This document shows positions 624-63,870 of a stretch of 64,000 nt of DNA, in pieces. The notes under the pieces are model-generated. The model ran no database searches. It was not told where the DNA came from and saw only the letters and a program-made list of their open reading frames with translations. Each line of letters starts with the position of its first letter. Positions within the stretch are counted from its first letter, which is position 1. This DNA is from Verrucomicrobiia bacterium (lineage in GTDB: Bacteria; Verrucomicrobiota; Verrucomicrobiia; JABWAM01): assembly GCA_028687435.1 (NCBI GenBank), contig JAQUAF010000004.1, positions 66,344-130,343 on the forward strand. The letters are read 5' to 3'. The position numbers were made by a program, and so were the translations under genes.

Positions 624-790
624 TGCTCGATCCGCCTTCGCCCAAGCGCTTCGGCGAGACAAGCGCTCGACGCAGAAAACCGGAAAGGCGGTGCAGGAGC
701 CCCGCCTGCGTGGCCAAAGCCACTACGGCGCGGCGACGGCCCGCCCTCCATTCATTTTGCGACAAAAGGAGGGCGGGGCTCCTGCACCGC
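624..790. repeat. Family-B module (624-676) followed by a family-A hairpin repeat whose left arm carries a 35-bp insertion (682-790)
   Basis: CTGCTCGATCCGCCTTCGCCCAAGCGCTTCGGCGAGACAAGCGCTCGACGCAG; then GGCGGTGCAGGAGCCCCGCC[TGCGTGGCCAAAGCCACTACGGCGCGGCGACGGCC]CGCCCTCC..GGAGGGCGGGGCTCCTGCACCGC. Confidence 0.8.
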
Positions 791-839
791 TTATCTTCAG
801 ATGAAAAGTTAACGGCATTGGGCGGACGCCGATTCCGCT

Positions 840-1943
840 CTATTTCGCCTTGGAGGCGGCTTGGGCGGCCTCGGCTTCGGGCTGCGCCTCGCGTTTGGCC
901 TTGATTGCGGCCACGATCTTGTTCGCCACAGCCGGGTTTTCCTTGAGAAACACCCGTGCGGCTTCGCGGCCCTGGCCAATCATGTCGCTGCCAAAGGCCA
1001 GCCATGCGCCTTTTTTGGACACCACTTCAAGCTCGGTTGCGACGTCAAGGATGGATCCTTCCGCGGAAATTCCCTCGTTGTAAAGAATGTCAAATTCCGC
1101 CTCGGTAAAAGGAGGCGCCACCTTGTTTTTGACCACTTTCACCTTCACATGATTGCCAATAACGGTCCCCATGGCATCCTTGATCTGATCCTTGCGGCGG
1201 ATATCCAATCTCACGGAAGCATAAAATTTAAGGGCCCGTCCGCCCGGCTGGGTTTCGGGACTGCCAAACATGACGCCGATTTTTTCACGAATCTGGTTGG
1301 TGAAAAGCAGACAGGTCTTGGCCTTGTGCAACGCGCCGGTCAGCTTGCGCATGGCTTGGGACATCAACCGGGCCTGGGCGCCCACCGTGGCATCGCCCAT
1401 CTGTCCCTCAAGCTCCGCACGCGGAGTCAATGCGGCCACCGAATCCACCACAATGACATCAAGCGCATTGGAACGAATCAGCGTCTCGGCAATGGTCAGC
1501 GCCTCTTCCCCGGATCCAGGCTGGGAAAAGAGCAGATCCTTCATGTTCACCCCGATCCGGCGGGCATAAGCCACGTCAAGGGCATGCTCGGCATCAATAA
1601 AAGCGGCCAGACCGCCGCCCAACTGGGCATTCTTGATAATGTGCAGCATCAGCGTGGTTTTACCGGAGGATTCCGGCCCGAAAATCTCGACGATCCGGCC
1701 CCGCGGCACGCCGTTGACGCCAAGAGCCGTGTCCAGAGCCAGCGACCCGGTGGAAATCACCTGGATGGGCACCTTGGAATGTTCGTCGCCAAGACGCATG
1801 ATGGCGCCGTCTCCAAATTGTTTGGTGATGGATTGCAACGCCTGATCAAGCTCGCGCTGGCGGGCTGTCTGGGCCTTGCTGTTCTCGTCGGTTGTTTTTT
1901 CGGCAGTGGCTTTGGCCATGGTCTTCTCCTGGTTGCGCCGCAT
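840..1943 (-). CDS. recA: Recombinase RecA
   Basis: 367 aa. Contains [30 protein letters not shown] (Walker A) and a RecA-wide match. The start could alternatively be the internal ATG at 1919 (MAKATAEK). Confidence 0.95.
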
Positions 1944-2182
1944 TTTTCACCAGTGAAATATGCGGCAAAATTATAGTGGCTCAGGTCAGGCTGTTTGCCC
2001 GGCAAACTTCGCTGCCGCGCAGCCGCACCAACAGAAAGCTGAAAGTTTCCCTTCAGCCTTCAGTCTTCCCGCCTTCGTCCCGACACAGCGGGACCGCAGC
2101 GGGGCAGGCATCTTAAACAACTTTTCCTTAAGTCTCCTATGGGATGTTTGCATTGCCCGTCCAGTGTTTGGGCAAAAAAACA

Positions 2183-2794
2183 TCAAAAATACTTGAGAAC
2201 GTCCTTCAACACCTGAATGGGAGTGGTGGTGCCGTCAATGTCAACCCGGACTTTTTGATAAAAGTCGAGCATGGGTCTGGTTTCCTTCTCGTAAACCTCC
2301 AAACGGCGGCGGATGGTATCCTCATTGGCGTCATCCTTGCGTCCCTCGATCAACGCGCGCCTCTTGAGGCGTTGGATCAGGAGTTGGGGATCGGGAGTGA
2401 CCAGGTTGAAAAGCTGCACAGGTTCAATCTTGTCCTCCATCATTTTTGCCTGGGCCACGTTGCGAGGAATGCCGTCGAGAATCAAACGGCCGGCTTGGGG
2501 ATCGAATTTTTTGGCTTGTACCAGCCGTTCCATGTGATCCTGCCACAGGCGCACCGTGAAATCGTCGGGCACCAACAGTCCCTTGGAGGAATACTCGGCA
2601 AAAACCTTTCCCAGTTCGCTCTGTTTGTCGAGCCCCCGGAAAAGATCGCCGGATGAACAATGCAGAAAATTGGGAAGTTGTCCAAGCACTTTGCCTTGAG
2701 TCCCCTTCCCGCAACCGGGAGGGCCGAAAAGAAGAATGGTTTTGTATTTGGTAGCCACGGCGTGAGAGATTACGTCGGGCAGGGTGTAAAGCAA
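2183..2794 (-). CDS. Adenylate kinase family protein (short type, no LID insertion)
   Basis: 203 aa. P-loop LLFGPPGCGKGTQ and overall similarity to Adk/NMP kinases. Lies directly downstream of the cNMP-binding protein on the same strand. Confidence 0.75.
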   Translation of the reverse strand: MLYTLPDVISHAVATKYKTILLFGPPGCGKGTQGKVLGQLPNFLHCSSGDLFRGLDKQSELGKVFAEYSSKGLLVPDDFTVRLWQDHMERLVQAKKFDPQAGRLILDGIPRNVAQAKMMEDKIEPVQLFNLVTPDPQLLIQRLKRRALIEGRKDDANEDTIRRRLEVYEKETRPMLDFYQKVRVDIDGTTTPIQVLKDVLKYF

Positions 2795-2844
2795 GGTGAA
2801 AATCGCGGGAAGGCTTCCATCCAGCAGCGCCTTCCCGCGGTTCC

Positions 2845-4376: not shown

Positions 4377-4447
4377 GGAAGCGGTGCGGGAGCCCCGCCC
4401 TCCATTGTCGATATGATGGAAAAAGGAGGGCGGGGCTCCCGCACCGC
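4377..4447. repeat. Family-A hairpin repeat (REP/MITE-like), complete copy
   Basis: GCGGTGCGGGAGCCCCGCCCTCC ... GGAGGGCGGGGCTCCCGCACCGC: a perfect 23-bp inverted repeat around a 20-nt loop. It sits in the divergent intergenic region between the cNMP-protein gene and the GntR gene. Confidence 0.85.
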
Positions 4448-4540
4448 TTGTTGTGCAGCCTTCGGAATCCAACTGATTCAATTTGACAATTCACTTGGAC
4501 TAGTCTAATATGTGAATGTTTTGTCAATTGGACTATACCA

Positions 4541-5560
4541 ATGAAACCGCTTTTTCCTTTGGATATCAACATCGACAGAAAGGCACTTTCACCGGCCTGG
4601 GAACAAATTGCGGGACGGATCCGGACCATGATTCGCGAGGGTGACCTTCGGCCCGGAGACCGGTTGCCGACGGACCGGGAGTTGGCCGGAAAACTGGACA
4701 TGGCGCGCGGCACCATCCGGCGCGCTTACGAACAATTGCAACGGGAACAGTTGATTGAGATGACCCAGGGACGGGGAAGTTTTGTCCGGCACCCTGTGTC
4801 GTCACGGCATCCGGGCAAGGACGAACAGGCGGATGTTCTGGTGGAAGACATGATATCCAAACTCGAAATGCTGCGGTTTTCACACGAGGAAATCCGTCAA
4901 CTGCTGGAATCAAAGCTCCATGAACGCGAACAAGTGATGAAACGGCTGGAAATCGCGGTGGTGGATTGCAATCCGGAATCCCTGGCGGCATATGGACGGC
5001 AGTTGAATCTTCCCTCCTGCATCCGGCTCAAACATCACCTGCTGGAAGACCTGAAAGGCGCGTCAAAACCTTGCGCGGCGCTGGGGGACGTTGATTTGGT
5101 GATCACGACCGCCACCCACCATCATGATTTGCAACGAATCATCCCGGAATTGGCCGACCGATTATGCCAGGTGGCACTGGCCCCGACGCCCCGGACGATT
5201 GTGGAACTGGCCTCGCTTTCGGCCGGACAGAACGCGGGCGTTTTCTGCCAAAGCCGGAGATTTCAGGAAATCGTCTGCCGCGCCCTGGCCGAACTGCAGG
5301 TGGCCGGCGCCCCCCACCCCGCCTTGCTGTTCGCGGAAGAAAAAAATCTGGCGGATTTTCTGAGGAACAGGAAGTCATTGATTGTTCCACCAGGATTTGA
5401 CCCGGACTTCTCCCCCAAACGCGCCGGCATCATCCGTGATTTCACCGAAAAAGGGGGGCGTTTGATCTGCTTTGATTATCAGGTCGAAAAAGGATCGCTG
5501 CTTCACATCCAGGAACGCATCAACTCGCTTCTCAACGCCAAGATCTCAAATGAAAACTGA
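4541..5560 (+). CDS. GntR family transcriptional regulator with C-terminal effector domain
   Basis: 339 aa. N-terminal winged HTH ([43 protein letters not shown]). Sits directly upstream of the glutamate mutase operon and overlaps the glmS start. Confidence 0.75.
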
Positions 5561-6014
5561 GACTCCAAACGATTCATCAACGCCCCCGCCAACCATTGTC
5601 CTGGGAGTCATTGGAGCGGACTGTCATGCGGTGGGCAATCGCATCCTGGAACGCCTGTTCAAAGACGGCGGATTCAAGGTGGTCAATCTGGGCGTGATGG
5701 TTTCACAGGAGGAATTCATTTCGGCCGCCATTGAAACCGGCGCCCGGGCCATCTTGGTTTCGTCGCTTTACGGTCATGGCGAAATGGATTGCCAGGGGTT
5801 TCGAGAAAAATGCTCCGAAGCGGGTTTGGACGAAATTTTGCTTTATATTGGCGGCAACCTGGTGGTGGGAAAGACGGATTTTTCACTGGTGCGGGAAAAA
5901 TTCCTGAAAATGGGTTTTGACCAGGTTTTCCCTCCAGGCGCCGCGCCCGAGGAGGGAATCGCAGCTTTGAAAGAGGATTTGGCGCGGCGCATCGTCGCAA
6001 AGGCCGGCAACTGA
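5550..6014 (+). CDS. glmS: Glutamate mutase sigma (S) subunit, the B12-binding methylaspartate mutase small subunit
   Basis: MKTETP... [67 protein letters not shown] closely matches Clostridium GlmS/MutS, with the DxHxxG B12 motif. The track ORF 5472.. is an N-terminal over-extension; the ATG at 5550 overlaps the GntR stop (5558-5560). Confidence 0.9.
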
Positions 6015-6024
6015 CATCCCGATC

Positions 6025-7398
6025 ATGAAATATCTCCTGGCAGACATCGGCAGCACTTTTACCAAGCTATGCCTGGCGGATGTCGAACAGCGAACCGTGC
6101 TGGGGACAACCATCGCGCCAACAACCGTGAAAACGGATGTCAACCAAGGGGTGGAAGCAGCCAGGCAAAAGCTCGGGAAAAAAGCGGAGGATGTCGAAGC
6201 GACCCTGGCTTGCAGCAGCGCCGCCGGAGGATTGCGGATGGTGGCTGTGGGATTGATCCCCAATCTCACCGCCGAGGCGGCCAGACTGGCGGCGCTCGGC
6301 GCTGGAGGAAAGGTGGTGGAAACCTTTTCCTTTTTGCTGACAGAGGCGGATTTGGGAAGGATACGGGCCTTGCGACCGGACATCCTTTTGCTTTCCGGCG
6401 GAACGGACGGCGGAGACGTCAAACACATCCTTCACAATGCCCGGCAAATCCAAAACCATCTGCCCGATGTGCCGCTGATTGTGGCAGGCAACCGTTCCGC
6501 CCATGATGAAATACGCCGAATCCTGGACGGACGGCGGGAAGTCTGGTTTGTCGAAAATGTCATGCCGGATTTCAAGCAACTCCGGCTGGAACCGGCCCGG
6601 GAAGCCATCCGCCGGGTTTTTCTGGAACGGATCGTCGAGGCCAAGGGATTGACGCGATTGTGCGACCGGGCCAGGATTCTGATGCCGACTCCGGAAGCGG
6701 TTTTCAAAGCGGCGGTGTTGTTGTCCAAGGGGATTCCAAACTCGGAAAAAGGGATGGGGGAATTATTGATCGTGGATATTGGCGGGGCGACAACCGATGT
6801 TTATTCCTGCGCCGAGGGTGCCCCCGCCCTGGCCACGGTCCGCCAGCGGGGATTGAGGGAACCTTGCGAAAAAAGAACAGTGGAAGCGGACATCGGCATG
6901 CGTCACACCGCGTCTCATCTTCTGGAAGAACCGGCTCTCAAGGAAATCATCCGGGAAAACGGCGCGGAATGGGAGGAGATGCAAACCTGGACGCAAACGC
7001 TGACCGGCAATCCCGGGCGCCTGCCGCAGAGCGAAAAAGAACAAGCCATGGACACCGCTTTGGCAAGTGCTGCCTGCGAGGTTGCGGTTGGCCGTCATTG
7101 CGGACGATGGGAAGAGGCGTTCTGTCCCGACGGCCGTTTTTATTTTCAGGATGGGAAGGATCTTTCCAATGTCCGCCGGGTGATCGGGAGCGGAGGTCCG
7201 ATTGTCAACAGCAAGACACCCCGGGCGATCCTGGCAGGAGCGAAAAAGAAAGACGGGGAACCGGCGTTGAAACCCCGGGATCCCAACTATTATCTCGACA
7301 CTCAATATCTTCTTTGGGCCATGGGATTGCTGGCGGAAGTGGATCGCGCGGCAGCCTTGGAAATCATGAAAAAAAACATTTTGCCATTGACGAAATAA
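6025..7398 (+). CDS. glmL: Glutamate mutase-associated protein GlmL (MutL-type accessory/reactivase-like, ASKHA fold)
   Basis: 457 aa. MKYLLADIGSTFTKL..TVLGTTIAPTTV parallels Clostridium cochlearium GlmL (MKNALLIDFGSTYTKV..). Position between glmS and glmE is as in the clostridial operon. Confidence 0.8.
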   Translation: MKYLLADIGSTFTKLCLADVEQRTVLGTTIAPTTVKTDVNQGVEAARQKLGKKAEDVEATLACSSAAGGLRMVAVGLIPNLTAEAARLAALGAGGKVVETFSFLLTEADLGRIRALRPDILLLSGGTDGGDVKHILHNARQIQNHLPDVPLIVAGNRSAHDEIRRILDGRREVWFVENVMPDFKQLRLEPAREAIRRVFLERIVEAKGLTRLCDRARILMPTPEAVFKAAVLLSKGIPNSEKGMGELLIVDIGGATTDVYSCAEGAPALATVRQRGLREPCEKRTVEADIGMRHTASHLLEEPALKEIIRENGAEWEEMQTWTQTLTGNPGRLPQSEKEQAMDTALASAACEVAVGRHCGRWEEAFCPDGRFYFQDGKDLSNVRRVIGSGGPIVNSKTPRAILAGAKKKDGEPALKPRDPNYYLDTQYLLWAMGLLAEVDRAAALEIMKKNILPLTK

Positions 7399-7430
7399 AC
7401 CGAACCGCGCGCAGCAATTTGCTTTGGCCA

Positions 7431-7490
7431 CGCAAGCGGGGCTCATGCACCGCTTTGCCCGGCAAACATTGAAATTCCTGAACATTTGAA
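7431..7490. repeat. Family-A repeat, right-half partial copy plus tail
   Basis: AAGCGGGGCTCATGCACCGC followed by the TTTGCCCGGCAAACATTGAAATTCCTGAACAT tail motif. Located inside the operon between glmL and glmE. Confidence 0.7.
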
Positions 7491-7523
7491 CTGGATTCCC
7501 GCAGTTTCGTATTTTTCGAGAGC

Positions 7524-9020
7524 GTGAAAGGCAACAAAACCCCATCCCAAAACAGCAAGGCAACCGTGGAACTTCAAAATAAAAAAATCCCGCTGAATGA
7601 TTTCCTGACCATGCGTCCGGCGGTTCTGGACGTCTGGCCGGCAGGCAGGGAGGCATCGCGTCTGGAAGAGGCCTTTGCCTATCATCAGAACATTCCCGAA
7701 CGCAAGCGGTTCCACCTGTCCCTGCAAAAAGCGGAAAAAACGCAAACCACCCTGGCCCAACCCCGGGCCGGCGTTTGCCTGGTGGATGAACACATCCGGT
7801 TGCTGAATTATTTGCAAAACGAAGGAGAGGCCGATCTTCTGCCCACCACGATCGACAGTTACACGCGGCAGAACCGTTACGACGAAGCCCAGAAAGGAAT
7901 CGAGGAAAGCCGCAAAAACGGACGGTCGTTGTTGAATGGATTCCCGGCAGTCAATCACGGGGTAAAAGCCTGCCGGGCCATCATCGAAGCCTTGGAAAAA
8001 CCCGTGGAAGTGCGCCACGGAACACCGGACGCCCGCTTGCTCAGCGAAATCACGCTGGCGGGCGGTTTCACCTCGCTGGAGGGAGGCGGAATTTCCTACA
8101 ACATCCCCTACTCCAAAAATGTGCCGCTGGAAAAAAGCATTGCGGATTGGCAATACGTGGATCGTCTCGTCGGATTTTATGCCGAAAACGGGGTGATCAT
8201 CAACCGGGAGCCCTTTGGCCCGTTGACCGGCACCCTGGTGCCTCCCTGCATCTCCAATGCGGTGGCAATCATCGAGGGATTGCTGGCGGCGGAACAGGGA
8301 GTGCGGGATATCACGGTGGGTTATGGCCAATGCGGAAACATCTACCAGGATGCCGCGGCCATTGTCTCGCTGCGGCAGTTGTGCCGGCAGTATCTGGAGC
8401 GTTTTGGATATGGGGACGTCTGCCTTTCAACCGTCTTCCACCAGTGGATGGGCGGGTTTCCCATCGAGGAAGCCAAGGCATTCGCGGTGATCGCCTGGGG
8501 AACCACGGCGGCGGCTTTTTCCCGCTCAACCAAGGTGATCACCAAATCGCCCCACGAAGCAATGGGAATTCCAACCGCGGAAGCCAATGTCAACGGCTTG
8601 CGGGCCACCCGTCAAATCCTGAACATGCTTAAATCGCAACAATCCCTGGATTCGGCGCTCATTGAACGGGAGGCTGGGCTGATCACCCGTGAAACAACGG
8701 CTTTGCTGGAAGGAACTCTTCGTCTTGGGGATGGCGATCTGGCGCAGGGAACGGTGAGAGCCTTCCAAGCCGGAGTGCTGGACATCCCTTTTGCCCCCAG
8801 CCGGGCCGCTCATGGATCGGTGGTGCCGGTGCGCGATCTGCACGGGGCGGTTCGTTTTCTGGATTTTGGCGCACTTCCTTTCGATGAGGAAATCAAGACG
8901 TTTCACCGGGAAGTGATCGCCGAACGGGCCAAAACCGAACGGCGGGCCGTGTCCTTCCAAATGGTGACGGACGATATCTATGCCGTCAGCAAAGGCCGGC
9001 TGGTGGGGGCGCCCAAGTGA
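7524..9020 (+). CDS. glmE: Glutamate mutase epsilon (E) subunit, the methylaspartate mutase large subunit
   Basis: 498 aa, GTG start. N-terminal region ([26 protein letters not shown]) and length match GlmE/MutE. Confidence 0.9.
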
Positions 9021-9044
9021 TACACAATGCACGACGCCAAACTT

Positions 9045-9138
9045 GGCAAGGCGGTGCGGGAGCCCCGCCCTCCGTCATTTTCCAATAAATGGAGGGCGGG
9101 GCTCCCGCACCGCTTTTTCCGACAACCTTCAATTTTTC
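9045..9138. repeat. Family-A hairpin repeat, complete copy plus tail
   Basis: GGCAAGGCGGTGCGGGAGCCCCGCCCTCC..GGAGGGCGGGGCTCCCGCACCGCTTTTTCCGACAACCTTCAATTTTTCC, between glmE and mal. ORF 9027.. falsely starts in it. Confidence 0.85.
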
Positions 9139-9164
9139 CAACCACTCAAACGGAGCCACCAACC

Positions 9165-10466: not shown

Positions 10467-10488
10467 AAACCATCCACATCTCATTTTC

Positions 10489-11865
10489 ATGAAAACATCG
10501 AACTCCCCAAAAATGGATGAAATCCGGATTCTCTCTCCCACAGCCATTCTTGGCTACGGTTTCCCCAGGGAATCTTTTCTGCGGGGCATGAAGGCATCGC
10601 CCCACGTGATCGCCGTGGACGCCGGCAGTTCCGACCCGGGACCGTTCTACCTTGGACATGGCAAATCATTCGTGGACCGGAATGCCGTCAAACGGGACTT
10701 GGAAATCATGATCACCCAGGGGAAAAAACACGGCATCCCCGTGATCATCGGCACGGCGGGGGGAAGCGGCGCCAAAGTCCATGTGGACTGGTGCATGGAA
10801 ATCATCCGGGAGATTGTCCGCGCCCACCGGCTGCGGCTGCGAACAGCCCTGGTTTATTCCGATGTCGAAAAGAAAACAGTCATCCAAAACCTGCAAAAGA
10901 AAAAAATCCGCCCCCTTCCCTTTGCGCCATCCCTGACGCCCAAGATCGTCCGAAACACCACTCGCGTGGTGGCCCAAATCGGAGTCGATCCCTTGATCAA
11001 GGCGCTGTCCAAACCGGTCGATCTGGTGGTGGCGGGCCGCTGCTACGATCCGGCGGTCTTTGCGGCCTTGCCGGTGAAGGAAGGATTCGATCTGGGACTG
11101 GCGCTGCATTTGGGAAAAATCCTCGAGTGCGCCGCCATCGCCGCCTCCCCAGGAAGCGGACGGGATTGCGTGCTGGGCATCCTGAAAAAAAATTCGTTCA
11201 TCCTGCAAACCCTCAGCCCCAACCGCCGTTTCACGGTGAATTCAGTGGCGGCGCATACCCTGTACGAAAAATCCCACCCCTTTATTTTGCCGGGACCTGG
11301 CGGACATCTGGATCTTTCCCAATGCCGTTTCCGGCAAAAAACTCCGAACTCCGTGGAGGTTTCCGGAAGCCAATTCGTGCCGGACACCCCTTGCACCGTC
11401 AAGATCGAGGGCGCGGTTTGCGTGGGATACCGGACGATATCCATCTGTGGCATTCGCGACCGCATCATGATCCGGCAGTTGGACGACATTTTTGCGGCGG
11501 TGCGGGAGGCGGTGAAAAACAATTTCGGCGTCCGGGACTACCGGTTGAATTTCCGGGTTTACGGACGGGACGGAGTCATGGGGCCGCTGGAACCGGCGCC
11601 TCAAGAAATCGGGCATGAAGCGGGAGTGATCATCGATGTGGTGGCGGCCACGCAGGAGGAAGCCAACACCATTTGCGGTTTCACCCGCAGCACGGCCCTC
11701 CACTATGGCTATCCGGGCCGGATTGCCACGGCAGGCAACCTGGCCTTTCCATTCAGCCCCTCCGACACCCCCATGGGCGCCGTGTATGAATTCAGCATCT
11801 ACCATTTGATGGACATTGCCGGCCCCTCAAACCTGTTTCCGGTAAAATCAATGATTTTGAATTAA
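10489..11865 (+). CDS. AtuA-like (DUF1446) family protein, function unknown
   Basis: 458 aa. Architecture and motifs (IPVIIGTAGGSG; VVAGRCYDPAVFAALP; ILECAAIAASPGSG) resemble the acyclic-terpene-utilisation AtuA family. Followed by a DUF4387 gene, as is typical for AtuA-like genes. Confidence 0.5.
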   Translation: MKTSNSPKMDEIRILSPTAILGYGFPRESFLRGMKASPHVIAVDAGSSDPGPFYLGHGKSFVDRNAVKRDLEIMITQGKKHGIPVIIGTAGGSGAKVHVDWCMEIIREIVRAHRLRLRTALVYSDVEKKTVIQNLQKKKIRPLPFAPSLTPKIVRNTTRVVAQIGVDPLIKALSKPVDLVVAGRCYDPAVFAALPVKEGFDLGLALHLGKILECAAIAASPGSGRDCVLGILKKNSFILQTLSPNRRFTVNSVAAHTLYEKSHPFILPGPGGHLDLSQCRFRQKTPNSVEVSGSQFVPDTPCTVKIEGAVCVGYRTISICGIRDRIMIRQLDDIFAAVREAVKNNFGVRDYRLNFRVYGRDGVMGPLEPAPQEIGHEAGVIIDVVAATQEEANTICGFTRSTALHYGYPGRIATAGNLAFPFSPSDTPMGAVYEFSIYHLMDIAGPSNLFPVKSMILN

Positions 11866-12020
11866 GCCGGGCCGGAGCGCGGCAGCTTGACACCCGATGC
11901 TCGATGCTCGACGCAGAAACGATCACTCAAAGGCGGGATACGACCGCCCGGAGCCGTTCCGCCTTCGTCTCTCATCGGACTACGGCGGGACAGGCCGGGA
12001 GGTTCACCACGTTTCACGTG
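11866..12020. repeat. Long composite repeat module (shared with 62077..62240)
   Basis: AATTAAGCCGGGCC..; ACGATCACTCAAAGGCGGGATACGACCGCCCGGAGCCGTTCCGCCTTCGTCTCTCATCGGACTACGGCGGGACAGGCCGGGAGG recurs at about 95% identity at 62160-62240. Confidence 0.75.
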
Positions 12021-12104
12021 GCCGGCCCTCCATCTTTTTACGCCAAATGGAGGGCGGGGCTCCCGCACCGCCTTTTTCGCCAAACTTTGAAATTCCTTAA
12101 CATT
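12021..12104. repeat. Family-A repeat (left arm partial) plus tail
   Basis: GGCCGGCCCTCC..AAATGGAGGGCGGGGCTCCCGCACCGCCTTTTTCGCCAAACTTTGAAATTCCTTAACAT. Confidence 0.8.
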
Positions 12105-12127
12105 AAATTAACCCCTGATAAAAAAAC

Positions 12128-19390: not shown

Positions 19391-20467
19391 ATGAAACTTT
19401 CCCCCCGCGAAAATCTTCTGAGAACCCTGCGCCGTCAGGGATTCGAGCAAGTCCCGGTCGATCCGGGATGTTTTTGCCCCTCCCAAACCGAGGCGTTTAA
19501 AAAACGCTTCGGCCACGAGGATCACTACGCCTTTTTTCAAGCGCCCATGCGCCACGCGGGAATCCCCACCGTCCAATCCTTCAATGGATGGAAAGAAAAA
19601 TACTACCGCCACGAGGAACTTCCGGCGGACACGGAATTTGACGCCTTCGGGGTGGGGCATTCGCATCGACCGGGCTGTTTTCACATGACCCGGATGCATC
19701 ACCCGTTGAAAGGGGAAGGGTTGACCGCGGACGACGTGCTCCGCTATCCCCTGCCCAAGCTGGCCGAAAACGCCCGTTCCCATTTGCGTGAAAAATGCGA
19801 CCAGTTGCATCAGGATGGCTTGGCGGTCATGGGCTGCCTGGGCTGCACGGTTTGGGAATGTTCCTGGTACATTCGCTCGATGGAAGACCTGATGGCCGAC
19901 ATGCTGACCGGGGAGGAAACCGCCGCATTGTTGCTGGATCGCGTGAGCGATCTTGCCTGCGAACGGGCGCGGTGCGCGGTGGAGGCGGGCGCGGACTTGC
20001 TTCAACTCGGAGACGACATCGGCATGCAATCATCCCCCATGATGAGCCTGGACCTGTGGCGTCAATGGCTGCAACCCCGGCTCAAAAAAGTGATCGATGC
20101 GGCGCGGTCCGTCCGGCCGGACATCCTGATTTTTTATCATTCCTGCGGTTATGTCCTGCCGTTTTTGGACGGTTTGATTGAGGCGGGGGTGGATATCCTG
20201 AATCCCGTCCAACCCGAATGCATGCAATTCGAGGAAGTCCATGCCAGGGTCGGAACACGGCTGTCGTTCTGGAGCACCATCGGGACGCAAACAACCCTGC
20301 CTTTTGGAAAACCCGATGAGGTGCGCGAGACGGTATGGCGGAATCTGCGCATCTGCGGCAATCAAGGCGGAATCGTGATCGGCCCCACCCACATGGTGGA
20401 ACCGGAAGTGCCGTGGGAAAACCTGATGGCCATGAAAGAGGCCTGCGAAAATTTCAGATTAAATTAA
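19391..20467 (+). CDS. Uroporphyrinogen decarboxylase (URO-D) / MtaA-like family protein
   Basis: 358 aa with a URO-D-fold signature (ERARCAVEAGADLLQLGDDIGMQSSPMMS...ILIFYHSCGYVLPFLDGLIEAGVDILNPVQPE). Confidence 0.7.
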   Translation: MKLSPRENLLRTLRRQGFEQVPVDPGCFCPSQTEAFKKRFGHEDHYAFFQAPMRHAGIPTVQSFNGWKEKYYRHEELPADTEFDAFGVGHSHRPGCFHMTRMHHPLKGEGLTADDVLRYPLPKLAENARSHLREKCDQLHQDGLAVMGCLGCTVWECSWYIRSMEDLMADMLTGEETAALLLDRVSDLACERARCAVEAGADLLQLGDDIGMQSSPMMSLDLWRQWLQPRLKKVIDAARSVRPDILIFYHSCGYVLPFLDGLIEAGVDILNPVQPECMQFEEVHARVGTRLSFWSTIGTQTTLPFGKPDEVRETVWRNLRICGNQGGIVIGPTHMVEPEVPWENLMAMKEACENFRLN

Positions 20468-20494
20468 GCCGCGCCAGGCGCGGCAACTTGAATA

Positions 20495-20636
20495 GCCACA
20501 AAAGGCACAAGCATCGTCAACAGGACAACGTTGACGATGTCACAAAATATGTTTTATCAAATGTCAACCATCCATTCTGAAATTAAATCTTGTGAAAGCG
20601 GCAATCGCGATTGCCGCTGCTTGTGCCTTTTGTGGC
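20495..20636. repeat. 142-bp highly structured element: 18-bp perfect outer stem enclosing two internal hairpins
   Basis: GCCACAAAAGGCACAAGC (20495-20512) pairs perfectly with GCTTGTGCCTTTTGTGGC (20619-20636). Inner hairpins: ATCGTCAAC-AGGACAAC-GTTGACGAT and GCGGCAATCG/CGATTGCCGC. Lies between the convergent URO-D and tsaB genes. Confidence 0.7.
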
Positions 20637-20681
20637 CATTCAATCGTGCCGATGATACTGAAACTTTGAATTTCCCAAACA

Positions 20682-21344
20682 TCAAGCTGAACTTCGCCCG
20701 GGCACGGCCACGCGGACATAATGGGGACCGAGACTGGAAAGCGCGGGCGCGCGGGAAAAATCCTGACGGCAGGCCAGCGCGCCGGTGGCTGATGCTGTGG
20801 GGAAAAGGCACAACCAAGGCGTCCCGGCCAAAAACGGAAAATCTTCAACCTTCAGTTCGTAACTGATCACCGCCGCAAAAGACCGTCCGAAAATTTGTTC
20901 CAATCCGGAGGGAGGCGCAACACGGGTTTCCGCCTGCCTCAGCGCACCTCCCCGCAATTCGACCTTGGCGCCAAAGATTTCCTCCCGCCGGGCATCGTTG
21001 AGCGCCAGAAAATCACCATCGGAAAGCTTGAGTTGACTGGCGGCCTGCGCGGCAAGGGCAAGCGGCGTCGGAATCTCGCACACCGGCATCTCATCCGCGC
21101 AAAGCAACCCCTTCAAGAATGCATAGCCAACCCGGAGGCCATTGTACGATCCGGGACCCTGGCCGATGACACAAAAATCGACGTCCTCCAACCGGACGCC
21201 AAGCCGCCGGTAAAGCGGCTCGATCAGGCGGGAAGCGTTGCCGCTTTCGGACACTTCGCGCAAGACAGTCTCCCCCTCGCCCAAGGCGAGACTCAATTGG
21301 GACGAAGAACTTTCAATGGCAAACCAACGGCGGGAGGTTTTCAT
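20682..21344 (-). CDS. tsaB: tRNA threonylcarbamoyladenosine biosynthesis protein TsaB
   Basis: 220 aa, YeaZ-like (LSLALGEGETVL...CVIGQGPGSYNGLRVGYAFLKGL). Confidence 0.85.
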   Translation of the reverse strand: MKTSRRWFAIESSSSQLSLALGEGETVLREVSESGNASRLIEPLYRRLGVRLEDVDFCVIGQGPGSYNGLRVGYAFLKGLLCADEMPVCEIPTPLALAAQAASQLKLSDGDFLALNDARREEIFGAKVELRGGALRQAETRVAPPSGLEQIFGRSFAAVISYELKVEDFPFLAGTPWLCLFPTASATGALACRQDFSRAPALSSLGPHYVRVAVPGRSSA

Positions 21345-25279: not shown

Positions 25280-25334
25280 GCCCACGCCCCCGGCCATGAA
25301 CAAGAAAAAAGCCGCGCCGGAGCGCGACGGCTCG

Positions 25335-25440
25335 ACGCCCAATGCTCGATCCGCCTTCGCTCTGCGAACTTGCGCCTTCGCCAAAGCTTCGGCGTCACAA
25401 GCTGGCGAGACAAGCGCCGAAGCAAAAAACCGGCAAGGCG
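25335..25440. repeat. Family-B module (variant)
   Basis: CTCGATCCGCCTTCGC..CTTCGGCG..GAGACAAGCGCC, related to 624-676, 40262-40320 and 62102-62160. Confidence 0.6.
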
Positions 25441-25451
25441 GTGCGGGAGCC

Positions 25452-25553
25452 CCGCCCTCCATTCATTTCGCGACAAATGGAGGGCGGGGCTCCCGCACCG
25501 CCTTTTTCGCCAAATATTGAAATTTCTGAACATGAACCAAGACAATTTTCTCA
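25452..25553. repeat. Family-A hairpin repeat, complete copy plus tail
   Basis: CAAGGCGGTGCGGGAGCCCCGCCCTCC..GGAGGGCGGGGCTCCCGCACCGCCTTTTTCGCCAAATATTGAAATTTCTGAACAT. Confidence 0.85.
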
Positions 25554-37751: not shown

Positions 37752-37777
37752 GCGATGCACGACGCCCGCAAACCCCT

Positions 37778-37880
37778 GGCAAGGCGGTGCGGGAGCCCCG
37801 CCCTCCACTTGTCGGAAAATGATGGAGGGCGGGGCTCCCGCACCGCTTTCCCACAAATATTGAAGTTCCTTAACACTGAA
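37778..37880. repeat. Family-A hairpin repeat, complete copy plus tail
   Basis: GGCAAGGCGGTGCGGGAGCCCCGCCCTCC..GGAGGGCGGGGCTCCCGCACCGCTTTCCCACAAATATTGAAGTTCCTTAACACTGAA. Confidence 0.85.
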
Positions 37881-40236: not shown

Positions 40237-40244
40237 ATTAAATT

Positions 40245-40320
40245 AGGCCGGGCCCAAGGCCCGGCAACTGCTCGATCCGCCTTCGCCCAAGCGCTTCGGC
40301 GAGACAAGCGCTCGACGCAC
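40245..40320. repeat. Stop-codon-proximal GC hairpin (GGCCGGGCC-CAA-GGCCCGGC) plus family-B module
   Basis: AATTAGGCCGGGCCCAAGGCCCGGCAACTGCTCGATCCGCCTTCGCCCAAGCGCTTCGGCGAGACAAGCGCTCGACGCA, nearly identical to 62085-62160 and 624-676. Confidence 0.8.
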
Positions 40321-57023: not shown

Positions 57024-57105
57024 CGCGGGAACAAGTCGTCCAGAGGCCGACCCTCCATTGATTTCCAATTGGAGGAGAATGGAGAGCGGGACTCCTGCAC
57101 GGTTT

Positions 57106-58601: not shown

Positions 58602-58635
58602 TCATGAACCGCCGGCAGCGCATTCCCAGGTACCT

Positions 58636-58989
58636 TCAATTCGCGACGCAACGAAATTTTTTTCGATTTTTTTGAAAATCCTTGATCAAAAATCGGATGT
58701 GATCCATGAGCTCCTTTTGGCGCTTTGTCAGACACTCAACATCGACCCGGTAACGTTCGACAGACAACAGACGTGGTTCCGCAAGCCGTTCGGCATCCGC
58801 ATCCAGCTTGGCATGAATGGTTTCAACGGCAAGTTTGGGAATGGCATTCTCGAAAAAATATTCGCGCCGGATGAATTGCCTGCTGGTCTCAATCGACCAA
58901 TCGAGATGACAAATCCGATCGCCGTCCAGATAAACCCCCAATCCCGTGCCTCCGCAGGATTCCTCCGATGTCGGCCCCTCAAGATGCAA
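58636..58989 (-). CDS. Hypothetical small protein upstream of the MFS transporter (weak call)
   Basis: 117-aa ORF on the same strand, ending 35 nt before the MFS ORF. Protein-like composition, no recognised domain. Competes with a low-complexity plus-strand frame. Confidence 0.25.
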   Translation of the reverse strand: MHLEGPTSEESCGGTGLGVYLDGDRICHLDWSIETSRQFIRREYFFENAIPKLAVETIHAKLDADAERLAEPRLLSVERYRVDVECLTKRQKELMDHIRFLIKDFQKNRKKFRCVAN

Positions 58990-59141
58990 AAGCGACGATT
59001 TATCGGACTCAAAACGCGATTGCAGACAAGCTCAATTTGCCCCCCCCTGCGCCCGCTCATTGCCCGGCTTGCGCGGAATTGTATTGGCCTCCCATATCAG
59101 TTATATTTTCCTGATGTTCAGAAAACTCAAATCCGCGGCAT

Positions 59142-59796
59142 GTCTCCCCCCATCGTTCATGACGCCGCCAAAAAATCCTGTCAAAAAATTCAATCGCAAC
59201 TTTTCTTTCACCCAAAAACTTTGAATTCCCCAGACATTCAATCAAAAAAACCGACATCACGCCGCATTGCATGGTTCTTTGTGATCCTTGGATTGTCGTG
59301 GTCTGTTTGGGTCAGTCCAAAAACCCCGGTTGAATTCTTTGATGCCGCTGTCCGGGACGCAAACATCCTCACCAAGCGCGACATGGAATTGTTCAATAAA
59401 ATTGACCCGGCAAAGGCGGCTGACGTCCGGAAAATTGAAGAGATGAATTCCCTCCGCGCCCGCATGGAACGGATTTCGCTCGTCCACGATTGGTTGAACC
59501 ATCCGAAATACGTCCGCGAACAACGATCCGACATCGTCTGGGGATTCTATACGGCCCATTCAGGCACGGAAACTGTCCTTTTGGCAAAAAACCCGGAATA
59601 TCTCTCTTTATCGGAGAAATTTGAGACGCTCAAAACGGAGGTCAAGTCCAGGAAACTTTTAAAGGCAGCCAGCAGCCTCAGTCATGAACTGGAAAAAGAC
59701 CCTCGTCGCAAAACGGATGACTTCCGCATACAAATGCAACGGTTCCTATTGAGAGAATTTCAGGCCCGCATTTTCTGGTGGGGGAACAACCCATGA
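59142..59796 (+). CDS. Hypothetical membrane-anchored protein (weak call)
   Basis: C-terminal part of track ORF 58390..59796, taken from the in-frame ATG at 59142. A TM helix (IAWFFVILGLSWSVWV) is followed by a charged helical domain. Its stop overlaps the next gene (ATGA). Confidence 0.3.
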
Positions 59797-60242
59797 CTCC
59801 CTTTCTTGCCGATGTCGTGTGGCCGGCCCTCATTCTTTCCGTCCGCCTCCTGGCATGGTGGTGCATCGCCGCGAGTCTCGTTCTTGAAGCGATGGCGCTC
59901 TGGCATTTCATGGGAATCCGTCCCGTCAAGGCATTCGCGGCATCCGTCGCAATGAACACCGTTTCCGCATTTTTCGGCGCCCTGCTTCTGCCCATGGCCG
60001 GAATCTGGTGGGAAACGCTCGCAAGCTTTCCCTGTCTTGCGTGGCTGGGACACGGAACATTCCATCCCATTTCCTGGATTGCCACCTGCTTGATTGCCAT
60101 CGCAATAAGCACCCTCATCGAAACATTCGTCCTCTGGCTCGTTTTTCTCATGCCATGGACACGCCGTCTTGCGGCGGTGATTCTGCTCGCCAACGGGGCC
60201 ACGGTCATCCCCGCCGTTTTGGCCATCTTCTTCTTGAAATGA
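59793..60242 (+). CDS. Hypothetical integral membrane protein (4 TM)
   Basis: MTPFLADVVWPALILSVRLLAWWCIAASLVLEAMALWHFMGI... is strongly hydrophobic. Translationally coupled to the upstream ORF. Confidence 0.4.
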   Translation: MTPFLADVVWPALILSVRLLAWWCIAASLVLEAMALWHFMGIRPVKAFAASVAMNTVSAFFGALLLPMAGIWWETLASFPCLAWLGHGTFHPISWIATCLIAIAISTLIETFVLWLVFLMPWTRRLAAVILLANGATVIPAVLAIFFLK

Positions 60243-60390
60243 AAAATTGAGACCGTGGCAATGACCGCTTTCGCGGGAATGACGAAGAAGAAAGAATGAC
60301 GAAGAAAGAAAAGAAATGATGAATTCGGGTAAAATCAGATGGAACCCTGCCAAAGACATTTTCCCCCGTCGGGGATAGAGTCGGAGAAAG

Positions 60391-60774
60391 CCAAAGTCCA
60401 AAGAGGCTCTTGCAAAACTACGATACTTGGCGTTGCAGCGGATTTTTTTCGCTGGGAAGGCGTGGAGCTTGGGCAATCCCTGCAACGGTGCCGCTTGTGC
60501 GGCACAAGCGATCCCGCCACAGCGGGACCGCCAGCGAAAACAAAGACGCGCAACCCTCTGGGCGACAACCGCTTTGGCCAACTCCGGCGTTGACCTCCTC
60601 GACTTCGCTCGGAACAAGTCGGCAGCTTGTCTCGCCGAAGCGCTCGGGCGAAGGCGGACCTGTCTCGCCGTAGCTTCTGAGCGAAGGCGGATCAAAGCCC
60701 ACTTTGGGGATTTTCCCGCCTCATCGCCTTGGATTTGGCCATAGCGGTTCATCGCGCCAAGCATCGTAGTTTTG
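60391..60774. repeat. 384-bp element bounded by 30-bp terminal inverted repeats (MITE-like); interior built from family-B repeat modules
   Basis: Left end GAGGCTCTTGCAAAACTACGATACTTGGCG (60391-60420). Right end (60745-60774) has the reverse complement GAGGCTCTTGCAAAACTACGATGCTTGGCG, a 29/30 match. The interior contains ..CTGTCTCGCCGAAGCGCTCGGGCGAAGGCGGA.. in inverted orientation. Confidence 0.65.
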
Positions 60775-60851
60775 CAAGAGCCTCCAAAGGCTGAAATTTG
60801 GGGAGGGCCCTTCGGCTTGATCTCCGCATTTTTGAATTTTTAATTGTGAAG

Positions 60852-62018: not shown

Positions 62019-62076
62019 CGAGAATCAGCCTCAACCCAACTGAAGCGAAACCTCGCAATTCAAAAGAAAAAATTTA

Positions 62077-62240
62077 AATTAGGCCGGGCCCAAGGCCCGG
62101 CAACTGCTCGATCCGCCTTCGCCCAAGCGCTTCGGCGAGACAAGCGCACGACGCAAAAACGATCACTCAAAGGCGGGATACAACCGCCCAGAGCCGTTCC
62201 GCCTTCGTCTCTCATCGGACTACGGCGAGACAGGCCGGGA
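62077..62240. repeat. Long composite repeat (stop-proximal hairpin, family-B module and shared 80-bp module), paralog of 11866..12020 and 40245..40320
   Basis: AAATTAGGCCGGGCCCAAGGCCCGGCAACTGCTCGATCCGCCTTCGCCCAAGCGCTTCGGCGAGACAAGCGC..ACGATCACTCAAAGGCGGGATACAACCGCCCAGAGCCGTTCCGCCTTCGTCTCTCATCGGACTACGGCGAGACAGGCCGGGAGG. Confidence 0.8.
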
Positions 62241-62322
62241 GGCCGGCCCTCCATCATTTCGCAGCAAATGGAGGGCGGGGCTCCTGCACCGCTTTTTCCA
62301 ACAAACATTGAAATTCCTGACC
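62241..62322. repeat. Family-A repeat (left arm partial) plus tail
   Basis: GGCCGGCCCTCC..AAATGGAGGGCGGGGCTCCTGCACCGCTTTTTCCAACAAACATTGAAATTCCTGACC. Confidence 0.8.
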
Positions 62323-62384
62323 GACCCTCGCCTAAAGGCGAGGGGTTTACCCATCCCAAACAAGAGACTCTAAAATCCCGAATC

Positions 62385-63773
62385 ATGTCCAAACCAACCG
62401 ATATTCGTCCCATAGGCGCGGAATTGTATTTCCTGCCCGTTCACATGCGCGTGCCGCTCAAGTTTGGCGCGGAAACCATTCAGAAATGCCATTGCGGACG
62501 GGTCCGCATCCGGGTTCGCGACGCCAAAGGCAGGGAGGCGGACGGCTGGGGGGAAACCCCTCTGAGCGCGGCATGGGTGTGGCCAAGCAAACTCAGTTAC
62601 GACGAGCGGGAAAAAGCCATGATGGATTTCTGCCGGCAACTGGCCAAGGCATGGAGCGCTTTCGATTCCAGCGGACACCCCATGGAAGTCGGCCACGATT
62701 TCATGGAAAAACAACTGCCGCGGCTGCATCAGGAATTCAACCGTCAACGCGCCGCCGAACCCATGCCATGGCTTGGCGCCCTGGTCTGTTGCTCCCTCTT
62801 TGACCTGGCGTTGCACGACGCCTATGGAGCGCTTCATCAAACACTGGTTTACGACACTTATCACGCCGGTTTCATGAACCGGGATCTGGCTTCCTATCTT
62901 GAACCCGCGTCCGATACCCGGGTGTCTTTTGCCAGAAAATATCCGCGGGATTTTTTCCAGCTTCCCGCTCCCCAAAAGCTCACGGTCTGGCATCTGGTCG
63001 GCGGCAAGGATCCCCTTGATCCGTCCGAACTGGACGGTTCGGAGCCAAAGGACGGCTATCCCTCCCATCTGGTGGAATGGATTCAGCGCGACGGGTTGAA
63101 GTGTCTCAAGATCAAATTGCGGGGCAACGACGAGGCTTGGGATTACGACCGCTTGGCCAAAGTGGGCCGGATCGGCATTGAACAAGGCGTTCATTGGCTG
63201 AGCACGGATTTCAACTGCATGGTCACCGACCCCGCCTATGTCAACCGCATCCTGGACCGGCTCCTGCTGGAACATCCGCGGATTTACGGAATGATTCTCT
63301 ATGTCGAGCAACCCTTTCCCTACGAGTTGGAGGAACATCAAATTGACGTACACAGCGTTTCCGCGCGCAAACCCCTTTTCATGGATGAGAGCGCCCACGA
63401 CTGGCGGTTGATCAAACTTGGACGACAACTGGGCTGGACCGGCGTGGCGCTCAAGACCTGCAAAACCCAGACGGGCGCCCTTCTCAGCCTTTGCTGGGCC
63501 AAAGCCCATGGCATGACGCTCATGGTGCAGGATCTGACCAATCCCATGCTGGCCCAGATTCCGCACGTTCTTCTCGCCGCCCATGTCGGCACCATCATGG
63601 GGGTTGAATCCAACGCCATGCAATTCTGGCCCGACGAATCGAAACCCGAGGCGGCGGTTCATCCCGGCCTCTACCAGCGCCGCAACGGCATCCTTGATCT
63701 CGCCACGATTCGCGGCCCAGGCTTCGGATATCGCATGAACGAAATTCGCCGCCAACTCCCCGCTTCAACTTGA
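62385..63773 (+). CDS. Enolase-superfamily enzyme (mandelate racemase / muconate lactonizing enzyme-like)
   Basis: VHMRVPLKFGAETIQ..VRIRVRDAKGREADGWGE capping/N-terminal domain pattern. 463 aa from the ATG at 62385. The track start 62268 lies in a repeat. Confidence 0.65.
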   Translation: MSKPTDIRPIGAELYFLPVHMRVPLKFGAETIQKCHCGRVRIRVRDAKGREADGWGETPLSAAWVWPSKLSYDEREKAMMDFCRQLAKAWSAFDSSGHPMEVGHDFMEKQLPRLHQEFNRQRAAEPMPWLGALVCCSLFDLALHDAYGALHQTLVYDTYHAGFMNRDLASYLEPASDTRVSFARKYPRDFFQLPAPQKLTVWHLVGGKDPLDPSELDGSEPKDGYPSHLVEWIQRDGLKCLKIKLRGNDEAWDYDRLAKVGRIGIEQGVHWLSTDFNCMVTDPAYVNRILDRLLLEHPRIYGMILYVEQPFPYELEEHQIDVHSVSARKPLFMDESAHDWRLIKLGRQLGWTGVALKTCKTQTGALLSLCWAKAHGMTLMVQDLTNPMLAQIPHVLLAAHVGTIMGVESNAMQFWPDESKPEAAVHPGLYQRRNGILDLATIRGPGFGYRMNEIRRQLPAST

Positions 63774-63799
63774 TCCTCGCAACAACAGGCGGCGCGGAA

Positions 63800-63870
63800 T
63801 CCCCTCCCTCCATTTTCTTCCAGTTGGAAGTAGATGGAGGGCTGGCCTCCTGACCTGTCTCGCCGAAGTC
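63800..63870. repeat. Degenerate family-A-like repeat
   Basis: CCCTCCCTCCATTTTCTTCCAGTTGGAAGTAGATGGAGGGCTGGCCTCCTGACCTGTCTCGCCGAAG. Confidence 0.5.

Follow-up and report, generated by a model that had tools for sequence, protein, structure and literature searches.

A probable REP/BIME-type family of extragenic palindromic repeats with a GGAG head in an uncultured Verrucomicrobiae genome

A 64-kb stretch of a Verrucomicrobiia genome (contig JAQUAF010000004.1, positions 66,344 to 130,343; hereafter the window) carries hairpin-forming repeats between many of its genes. What kind of element are these repeats, and how did they come to lie where they are? An earlier note, made from the sequence alone, had described them as a mosaic family of repetitive extragenic palindrome (REP)-like or miniature inverted-repeat transposable element (MITE)-like hairpins. 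Our analysis, in which all counts, copy numbers and densities refer to the window, indicates that they probably represent (probability about 0.6) a lineage-specific family of interspersed extragenic palindromic repeats of the REP type, arranged in the manner of bacterial interspersed mosaic elements (BIMEs), carried by an uncultured Verrucomicrobiae genome. The kind of element is already known from Escherichia coli and Pseudomonas. New is a GGAG-headed family with BIME-like hybrids and accessory modules.

The building block of the family, the A unit, is a REP-like stem-loop of about 25 nt with a GGAG head at its 5' end, (AT)GGAG-G-GCGGG-GCT-CCCGC-ACCGC. Type A1 (GCGGG-GCT-CCCGC-ACCGC) combines a perfect stem of 5 bp with a loop of 3 nt, and includes a subtype, A1t, with CCTGC; type A2 (GGCCGG-CCTC-CCGGCC-TGTCTCGCC) has a 6-bp stem and a 4-nt loop. 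The 24-nt arm GGCGGTGCGGGAGCCCCGCCCTCC matched 11 times with at most three mismatches, and never in 100 shuffles. A looser unit pattern, ATGGAGGGCNGNNCTCCNG, gave 20 matches where 3.1 were expected, and 18 of the 20 pair into nine inverted doublets (Table 1), in which the heads face the loop across spacers of 12-21 nt, as in the REP doublets called REPINs. Five doublets are A1/A1 (E1, E2, E4, E7, E8) and four are A2/A1 hybrids or degenerate (E5, E10, E12, E13). Beside these 18 units stands one single A unit, the half copy at 7435-7459.

The earlier note had claimed at least ten copies, and all ten loci that it named are present, with one of them moved from 25452-25553 to 25435-25533. This corresponds to a density of about one A locus per 6.4 kb across the 64 kb. 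All ten A loci are extragenic, in a window of which intergenic DNA makes up 11%. By their neighbouring genes, five are co-oriented (E1, E3, E4, E5, E8 and E12 by composite count), two or three convergent, and two divergent (E2, E7). As to the statement that such repeats occupy most intergenic spaces, elements are found in 13 of the 21 spacers of at least 60 nt, and of the roughly 7.4 kb between genes the repeats take up about 1.4 kb.

The core inverted repeat was likewise recovered, although its perfect pairing extends over 25-29 bp instead of the 23 bp first reported, around loops of 12-21 nt and not 20-30 nt. Folded as single-stranded DNA, the four uninterrupted A1/A1 doublets (E2, E4, E7, E8) have a dG of -38 to -45 kcal/mol and z-scores of -9 to -11 (E2: -40 kcal/mol, z -11.3; E7: -45.2 kcal/mol, z -10.8). 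The heterodimers E5 and E12 have -15.5 and -19 kcal/mol, with z-scores of -2 to -3. Four copies agree fully over 24-29 nt of their arms, and the loops differ in all copies. The loop of E8, and probably also that of E2, is the reverse complement of the consensus loop between unflipped flanks. Paired changes occur in the stems, with G:C replaced by A:T in both arms of E1, and the base pair at the foot of the stem running through the series G:C (E7), G.T (E4, E8) and A:T (E2). Such paired changes would fit selection or homogenisation for pairing. The stem is followed by a run of five T in E4, E5, E7 and E12, of three in E3 and E8, and of two in E1 and E2; the stems are much longer than is common in intrinsic (Rho-independent) terminators. 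No tandem iteration of A doublets was found in the window.

Two units carry nested insertions. The left unit of E1 is split by an insertion flanked by CCCGCC direct repeats, which the earlier note had put at 35 bp; the insertion is real, but it measures 39 nt including the duplicated CCCGCC, or 33 nt plus the 6-nt repeat. The second insertion, 19 nt in the A2 loop of E5, lies in the copy at 12021-12104 and is missing from the earlier note. The sequence with which the E1 insert starts (TGCGTGGCCAAAGC) is seen again, inverted, at a symmetrical junction in E3, and also beside the unit in a metagenomic contig, L002, to which we return below.

Around the A units lie four accessory modules. No composite departs from the order S, B, C, A, T, a BIME-like arrangement that reaches about 250 nt. 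Module S is a hairpin of 8-9 bp at or over the upstream stop codon, which starts with TTAAATTAGGCCGGG. Its presence agrees with the stop-proximal hairpin of the earlier note, ATTARGCCGSGCC, with five matches against 0.48 expected. In modules B and C, CCGCCTTCG...GGCGAGACA forms the basis of an imperfect palindrome. The family-B modules described before were found at 624-674, 40268-40319 and 62104-62155, as a variant at 25336-25417, and as two inverted copies within 60618-60693, whereas the 97-nt module C had not been named; its two copies in E5 and E12 (11906-12002 and 62146-62242) are 95% identical. The S-B part is 99% identical between E9 and E12 (40238-40319 and 62074-62155). Module T is a G-poor tail of 30 nt that ends with GAAATTCCTGAACAT, and the conserved tail motif was borne out by six matches against none expected, every one on the plus strand. 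The full A-bearing composites (E5, E7, E12) are 229-251 nt long, E6 has S and T around another hairpin, X, in the same S...T frame, and the remaining elements are partial. Since the start of S and the end of T are unrelated in sequence, the composites have no terminal inverted repeats.

Coding functions and known RNA families do not account for the elements. Reading frames that run through them are not conserved, which indicates that they are not coding: a small open reading frame (ORF) from the ATG of ATGGAGGG was rejected, as its frame and stops vary between copies, and so was a minus-strand ORF through T and A (MFRNFNIW...), whose frame is not conserved. A protein database searched with the six-frame translation of the composites returned nothing at E<=1. 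The Rfam search gave no match at the gathering threshold; with the cut-off relaxed to E<=1, nothing but generic hairpins of miRNA precursors was matched, at scores well under that threshold. Neither a scan nor inspection by eye revealed a sigma-70-like promoter in T, and a leaderless design fits E7 alone.

Are the elements insertions, or are they ancestral sequence? An operon with three of them offers a comparison. The gene order glmS-glmL-glmE-MAAL (methylaspartate ammonia-lyase)-AtuA-DUF4387, followed by a gene for a protein of 318-322 aa, is syntenic in the related loci L085, L086 (GlmE 73% identical) and L087 (69%). The spacers of this operon are -8, 14, 2, -4, -4 and 1 nt in L085 and L086, and at most 57 nt in L087, and hold no such repeats. 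In the window, the spacers with E3, E4 and E5 measure 125-212, 144 and 262 nt, and the element-free MAAL-AtuA spacer 22 nt. The compact and repeat-free syntenic operon of the relatives thus supports the interpretation of the elements as insertions, rather than as ancestral sequence; the empty-site comparison is one with distant relatives, L001 and L084 (see below) being identical to the window. The AtuA-like protein, whose last codons lie in E5, ends in KSMILN, as compared to LTIGGGR and LTVGAKA in the relatives, and its C-terminus is 3 aa shorter. The URO-D-like gene likewise ends with TTA AAT TAA, in S of E6. As a separate observation, the glutamate mutase/methylaspartate ammonia-lyase block with the AtuA-like and DUF4387 genes (4541-13533) is syntenic with Planctomycetota and other metagenome-assembled genomes (MAGs) at about 70% identity. 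In contrast, the nearest MutL relatives of the window are found in Verrucomicrobiota MAGs only (61-72% identity), and the glm-mal operon may have been horizontally transferred.

The A unit is also found beyond the window. An exact 23-mer occurs on two contigs (L002, L003) of the metagenome Ga0247843, which have 61% GC and belong to a different organism. In L002 the unit forms a doublet without spacer with a second unit type, tags inside, and in L003 two units stand with their heads outside, 30 nt apart. Like REPs, the A unit thus allows more than one arrangement. All units of the window, and those of L002 and L003, have GGAG as their head. The closest large relative, L005 (MutL 64% identical), has canonical GTAG REPs, GTGGTAGGGCGTGCTCGCCGAGCGCGCC, with a 9-bp stem containing one mismatch and a GCC loop; they occur as a tags-outside dimer (7410-7516) between convergent epimerase and carotenoid-synthesis genes, and as a single unit (770-797). 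Alignment of the window units with those of L005 reveals a G-x-AGGGC head common to all, with GTAG in L005 where the window has GGAG. No match to the family was found in the viral contigs and plasmids searched.

Over 4380-9113 and 12082-20491, the window is matched at 100% identity by an independent short-read assembly (run SRR22315507; Logan contigs L001 and L084). Therefore, the repeat elements are no artefact of a single assembly. The Logan contigs start and end in or near elements (4380, 9113, 12082, 20491); we considered this as a sign of many copies and rejected it, as hairpins or the copies in the window could break a k-mer assembly.

Table 1. Repeat elements and genes of the 64-kb window; doublet matches are paired matches to the looser unit pattern.
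Feature	Position	Strand	Composition	Doublet matches	Site
E1	593..791	+	S-like hairpin 593-625, B 624-674, A1t/A1t doublet 682-791	733/766	between recA stop (840, - strand) and periplasmic-binding-protein start (~556, - strand)
E2	4379..4449	undefined	lone A1/A1 doublet; 25 paired bp; loop 17-21 nt	4387/4423	divergent spacer, gene for cyclic nucleotide (cNMP)-binding protein (-) / gntR (+)
E3	7404..7488	+	half copy: reverse-complemented insert module (GCTTTGGCCACGCA), A1 unit 7435-7459, T 7456-7485		between glmL and glmE; also inside independent Logan contig L001
E4	9030..9148	+	3' end of B (GCACGACGCC), A1/A1 doublet 9048-9116, diverged tail	9057/9089	9 nt past glmE stop to 17 nt before MAAL start (9165)
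E5	11858..12104	+	S, partial B, C 11906-12002, A2 unit with insertion, A1 unit, T	12015/12047	final codons and stop of AtuA-like gene (TTG AAT TAA) inside S; ends 23 nt before DUF4387 start
E6	20460..20682	+	S 20460-20490, hairpin X (arms 20488-20520, 20611-20643), T-like tail 20661-20682		UROD stop inside S; fills convergent UROD/tsaB spacer
E7	25305..25533	+	S-like module, B, B' (hairpin with 10-bp stem), perfect A1/A1 doublet 25435-25504 (29 bp), T	25444/25477	divergent spacer, epimerase (-) / GDSL (+); final T bases (ACATG) give first in-frame ATG of GDSL gene
E8	37752..37876	+	3' end of B, A1/A1 doublet 37781-37849 with inverted loop, T	37790/37822	begins right after GH123 stop; ends 35 nt before next start
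E9	40238..40319	+	S and B only		begins 1 nt past metallophosphatase stop
E10	57036..57104	+	degenerate A2/A1 doublet	57040/57079	between ends of NRPS2, a nonribosomal peptide synthetase gene (+), and MFS gene (-)
E11	60618..60693	-	two B-type units, inverted		inside 382-nt segment bounded by 30-nt inverted repeats (60403-60432, 60755-60784)
E12	62074..62324	+	most complete composite: S, B, C, A2/A1t doublet 62236-62294, T	62236/62268	between GFO/IDH/MocA gene and enolase-like gene
E13	63795..63871	-	degenerate A1/A2 doublet and 3' end of C	63795/63834	begins 21 nt past enolase-like stop
periplasmic-binding-protein gene	start ~556; runs off left window edge	-
recA, adk, cNMP-binding protein gene	recA stop 840	- (recA)
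gntR-glmS-glmL-glmE-MAAL-AtuA-DUF4387 block	within 4541-13533
mutL, ECF sigma factor gene, nrdR, URO-D-like gene, tsaB/tsaE, T2SSE ATPase gene	further genes
epimerase, GDSL lipase, DUF1559 pilin-like protein, GH123 and metallophosphatase genes	further genes
two NRPS genes, MFS transporter, GFO/IDH/MocA oxidoreductase and enolase-like protein genes	NRPS genes within 40565-56550

Taken together, the evidence upholds the REP half of the first description, probably as a non-autonomous family: within the window by the anatomy of the unit, the inverted doublets, the two unit types, the motifs in fixed order and the extragenic sites, and from outside by the unit in other arrangements in another organism and by a related MAG whose canonical GTAG REP shares the head. 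The MITE half was not supported, given that the composites do not end in inverted repeats and that no consistent target-site duplication (TSD) is present.

How would such a family spread? The A units would be copied as single-stranded hairpin DNA by a tyrosine transposase of the HUH/Y1 class, of the REP-associated tyrosine transposase (RAYT) or IS200-IS605 kind, with its gene in another part of the genome. If sites in the units and linkers were cut and rejoined, the mosaics, the hybrids, the loop inversions and the nested insertions could result. This copying mechanism we infer from the biochemistry of TnpA_REP and IS200/IS605 (PMC3333891, PMC3337134). All nine elements with S or T lie on the plus strand, also where the neighbouring genes are oriented -/- (E1) or -/+ (E7). 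This single-strand orientation is compatible with strand-specific insertion, and in one replichore it is inseparable from other causes.

Once inserted, the elements would presumably be transcribed together with their neighbours. The stable hairpin, often followed by 3-5 T, might then serve as a barrier at the 3' end, an attenuator or a terminator, and set the relative expression of adjacent cistrons. In E. coli operons, intercistronic REPs block 3' exonucleases or attenuate transcription.

Several points weigh against a REP/BIME-type family. The head is GGAG, which is neither GTAG nor one of the published degenerate forms of GTAG. The A1 stem is a perfect one of 5 bp, while the E. coli enzyme needs GTAG and a mismatch in the stem (PMC3333891). 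Four of the nine doublets are hybrids, which are absent in P. fluorescens (PMC3337134), though normal in the BIMEs of E. coli (PMC3333891). Furthermore, no Y1/RAYT or other transposase was found among the ORFs of the window, nor beside the copies in L002 or the GTAG REPs in L005, and the family is absent from about 1.3 Mb of loci of relatives (80 around mutL homologues and the three syntenic glm loci). Strong terminators at three places within one operon are awkward unless read-through is substantial, and the role as terminator or stabiliser is one that we only infer.

Is the mobile unit perhaps not the A unit, but the whole composite from S to T? It would then be a non-autonomous element derived from IS200/IS605, similar to the palindrome-associated transposable elements (PATEs), with S as left-end hairpin and A or X as right-end hairpin, and would insert strand-specifically at gene boundaries, beside an AT-rich target, with the A doublets as cargo or as a structure of the right end. 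Four two-ended composites are of like length in spite of differing cores (E5 247, E6 223 with X for A, E7 229 and E12 251 nt), their ends are not inverted repeats and show no TSD, and the nine elements with S or T lie on the plus strand whatever the gene orientation. To the left of ATTARGCC stands TTAA in three cases and TTGA in one (ACAA and AAAA completing the six left flanks), and the right flanks of E5 and E8, starting with TAAATTA and TGAATTA, are similar to the left end. However, five to six ends of each kind are too few for a target motif. Moreover, most elements are one-ended (E1 and E9 without T; E3, E4 and E8 without S), E2 is a bare doublet, the A unit alone is found in the other arrangements of L002 and L003, and the window holds no tnpA or tnpB. 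We regard a mobile S...T composite as unlikely.

A more elaborate version, to which we give still less credit, takes the S...T composite as an end-defined, strand-specific element of gene boundaries. S would overwrite the last codons and the stop of the upstream gene (L-N-stop in two genes) and deliver a strong hairpin, and T would provide a G-poor, unstructured leader before the next start, or the ATG itself in E7. The result might be a portable intercistronic cassette that re-tunes cistrons in a genome poor in Shine-Dalgarno (SD) motifs, with an exchangeable core, A1/A1, A2/A1 or X, of which X is conserved across genera.

A transposase would not be needed at all if the repeats were regulatory hairpins of the host, that is terminators, attenuators or 3' stabilisers of mRNA, spread and kept alike by recombination or gene conversion. 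Such a role would suit the very stable stem followed by a T-run in four to six copies, the upstream A-run of E7 and E1, which gives them a bidirectional look, and the position of elements directly after stop codons. The stem series G:C, G.T, A:T is as expected for pairing of plus-strand RNA, and the arm identity over 24-29 nt in four copies is what homogenisation would give. Yet E2 and E7 lie in divergent promoter regions, where there is no upstream gene to terminate, and three copies are found in an operon whose counterparts in relatives are compact and lack the repeats. Gene conversion makes no new insertion sites, and the fact that the A unit recurs in a different organism, differently arranged, speaks in favour of a portable unit. 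Altogether, we would give host hairpins a small chance.

A classical MITE family would consist of deletion derivatives of an insertion sequence (IS) with a DDE transposase, with terminal inverted repeats (TIRs) and TSDs. The long perfect inverted arms of 25-29 bp recall such elements, and the internal insertion of E1 is flanked by the 6-nt direct repeat CCCGCC. But only 12-21 nt lie between the arms, the arms in L003 are heads-out, the hybrid A2/A1 doublets pair poorly, and the ends S and T of the composites are unrelated. No direct repeats flank the doublets E2, E4, E7 and E8 or the composites E7 and E12; AT-rich similar flanks are seen at E5 alone, and the CCCGCC repeat at the internal E1 insert alone. 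Because TIRs and consistent TSDs are lacking, the family is not of the classical MITE type, and we hold this origin to be very improbable. An integron-type array of attC sites, or other site-specific recombination sites between gene cassettes, is hardly credible: imperfect palindromes with variable centres do lie between co-oriented genes, but they lie in divergent and convergent spacers too, the neighbours are core genes and a conserved operon (recA, mutL, tsaBE, glm-mal), and the window has no integrase and no RYYYAAC or GTTRRRY core sites at the boundaries. CRISPR and tRNA-derived origins were rejected on anatomy.

Some structures next to the elements deserve mention in their own right. Hairpin X of E6 (20488-20643) is an inverted repeat with 33-nt arms around a centre of 90 nt; an S module precedes it and a T-like tail follows. 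In L005 (21140-21270), from another genus, a hairpin arm matches its arm (GCTGCTTGTGCCTTTTGTGGCCATTC) at about 23/26 positions, with the arms there arranged oppositely; a hairpin arm that appears conserved across genera would be unusual for a selfish repeat. The segment at 60403-60784 has a 30-nt inverted repeat of 97% identity (GAGGCTCTTGCAAAACTACGATACTTGGCG) around 322 nt with the two inverted B units of E11, and there is no second copy of it in the window. Possibly this segment is a composite element of larger size; alternatively, it might be a regulatory palindrome, placed upstream of the GFO/IDH/MocA gene. Small perfect hairpins, CCTCCCCTTGTCAAGGGGAGG, CTCCCCCTTGTTCAAGGGGGAG and CCCTCGCCTAAAGGCGAGGG, follow directly after E9 (40327-40380) and E12 (62326-62346); they are single-copy in the window and may be members of other repeat families.

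The earlier note had also proposed that the GGAGGG arms sequester ribosome-binding sites. This was not supported, as 52-116 nt separate GGAGGG from the start codon that follows, and an SD-like motif (GGAG, GAGG or AGGA at -20 to -4) precedes only 6 of the 39 predicted starts, the upstream regions being A/C-rich and G-poor. Given this low number, the genome seems to rely little on SD pairing. Start codons also matter for annotation. The longest-ORF starts of MAAL (9027), GDSL (25342) and the enolase-like gene (62268) run through elements, while homology puts the starts at 9165, ~25531 and 62386. In two cases out of five, moreover, the downstream gene shares its frame with the ATG inside ATGGAGGG, which can mislead gene callers. 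Annotators should thus be warned of false starts through longest ORFs, and of short-read assemblies that break at the elements.

Two proteins of the window are identical to the NCBI proteins MDD2706953.1 and MDD2706950.1 of a Verrucomicrobiae MAG. The window has a GC content of 50-58% and a GC skew that is negative throughout. Its long direct repeats D1-D7, D12 and D15 are explained by module paralogy of the two NRPS genes (2131 and 3197 aa; 40565-56550), and are unrelated to the hairpin family. Two DUF1559/prepilin-type genes, paralogues 6 kb apart, have N-termini that are 88% identical in DNA (28338-28491 and 34593-34746). The region 58602-60797, about 2.2 kb, has a lower GC content (0.50 in the 56-60 kb bin), no ORF with a Pfam match, and a solo T-like motif at 59216-59237.

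What do these repeats add to our picture of REPs? REPs, BIMEs and REPINs are well studied in Gammaproteobacteria and barely described in the Planctomycetes-Verrucomicrobia-Chlamydiae (PVC) group. The GGAG head of the window and the GTAG of a related genome form a natural pair for the study of RAYT/REP co-evolution in tag specificity. In addition, the glm operon provides before-and-after evidence, with three apparent invasions of a tightly packed, translationally coupled operon and one C-terminus and stop codon that seem to have been rewritten. The density and modularity of the family make it usable as a marker for strain typing and assembly quality in this lineage. As the element is of an ordinary kind, it opens no new kind of biology.

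Among other repeats, RIME of Sinorhizobium, the pneumococcal BOX, the Correia elements of Neisseria and the enterobacterial ERIC are also modular, intergenic, hairpin-forming and co-transcribed, and can supply stop codons or alter expression. Correia and ERIC have TIRs, Correia a TA duplication, and the modules of BOX are iterated. We know of no sequence relation between any of these four and the family of the window. The PATEs derived from IS200/IS605 share the absence of TIRs and TSDs, the subterminal hairpins and a one-strand bias compatible with insertion into the lagging-strand template. They differ in that many copies here lack one end, and in that no parent IS is known.

By definition, a REPIN-RAYT system combines a RAYT gene flanked by its own REPs with tens to hundreds of REP copies across the genome. 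There is a resemblance to that of Pseudomonas fluorescens SBW25, where, too, a pair of inverted REPs makes a near-perfect hairpin, the spacer differs in each copy, both loop orientations exist, and singlets and degenerate copies occur beside well-conserved doublets. The commonest spacings in SBW25 are 71 and 110 nt, and hybrid doublets are absent (PMC3116915, PMC3337134). In the window, in contrast, the spacer is 12-21 nt, four of nine doublets are hybrid, the doublets lie inside larger composites of fixed order, and no RAYT was seen in the 64 kb.

REPs tagged with GTAG or CGTC have been described in more than 80 species, with dimers in both arrangements and copies at gene ends (PMC3733652). 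Their units are GC-rich stem-loops of 20-40 nt, with the tag unpaired at one end of the stem. The PVC members of this survey are the verrucomicrobium Opitutus terrae and Rhodopirellula baltica only. Published variants of GTAG are GYAG, GYRG, GTRG, GTMG and GTGG, and the dimers are 1-100 bp apart (PMC3733652). With this GTAG superfamily, including GTAG-17, -19 and -20 of O. terrae and the REPs of L005, the family of the window shares the layout of tag, stem and 2-4 nt loop, the dimers with tags inside or outside, the preference for unidirectional and convergent spacers, and the placement of some copies right where coding regions end. The GGAG head lies outside these published variants.

The BIMEs of E. 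coli, with their units y, z1 and z2, linkers L and S, motifs s, l and r, and TnpA_REP/RAYT (PMC3333891), have a GTAG head and a stem of about 12 bp with a required mismatch, as opposed to GGAG and a perfect stem of 5-6 bp here. Pairs are iterated in tandem there (BIME-2), and not here, the E. coli elements are bound by IHF, gyrase or Pol I, and the stop-codon hairpin S and the 30-nt, G-poor T are features of the window. Nevertheless, both have GC-rich headed units of two types in inverted pairs, variable linkers, extra motifs in fixed order, and extragenic or intercistronic sites. Both also display a mosaic variability of the kind that arises in vitro when iREP and linker sites are cleaved and rejoined (PMC3333891).

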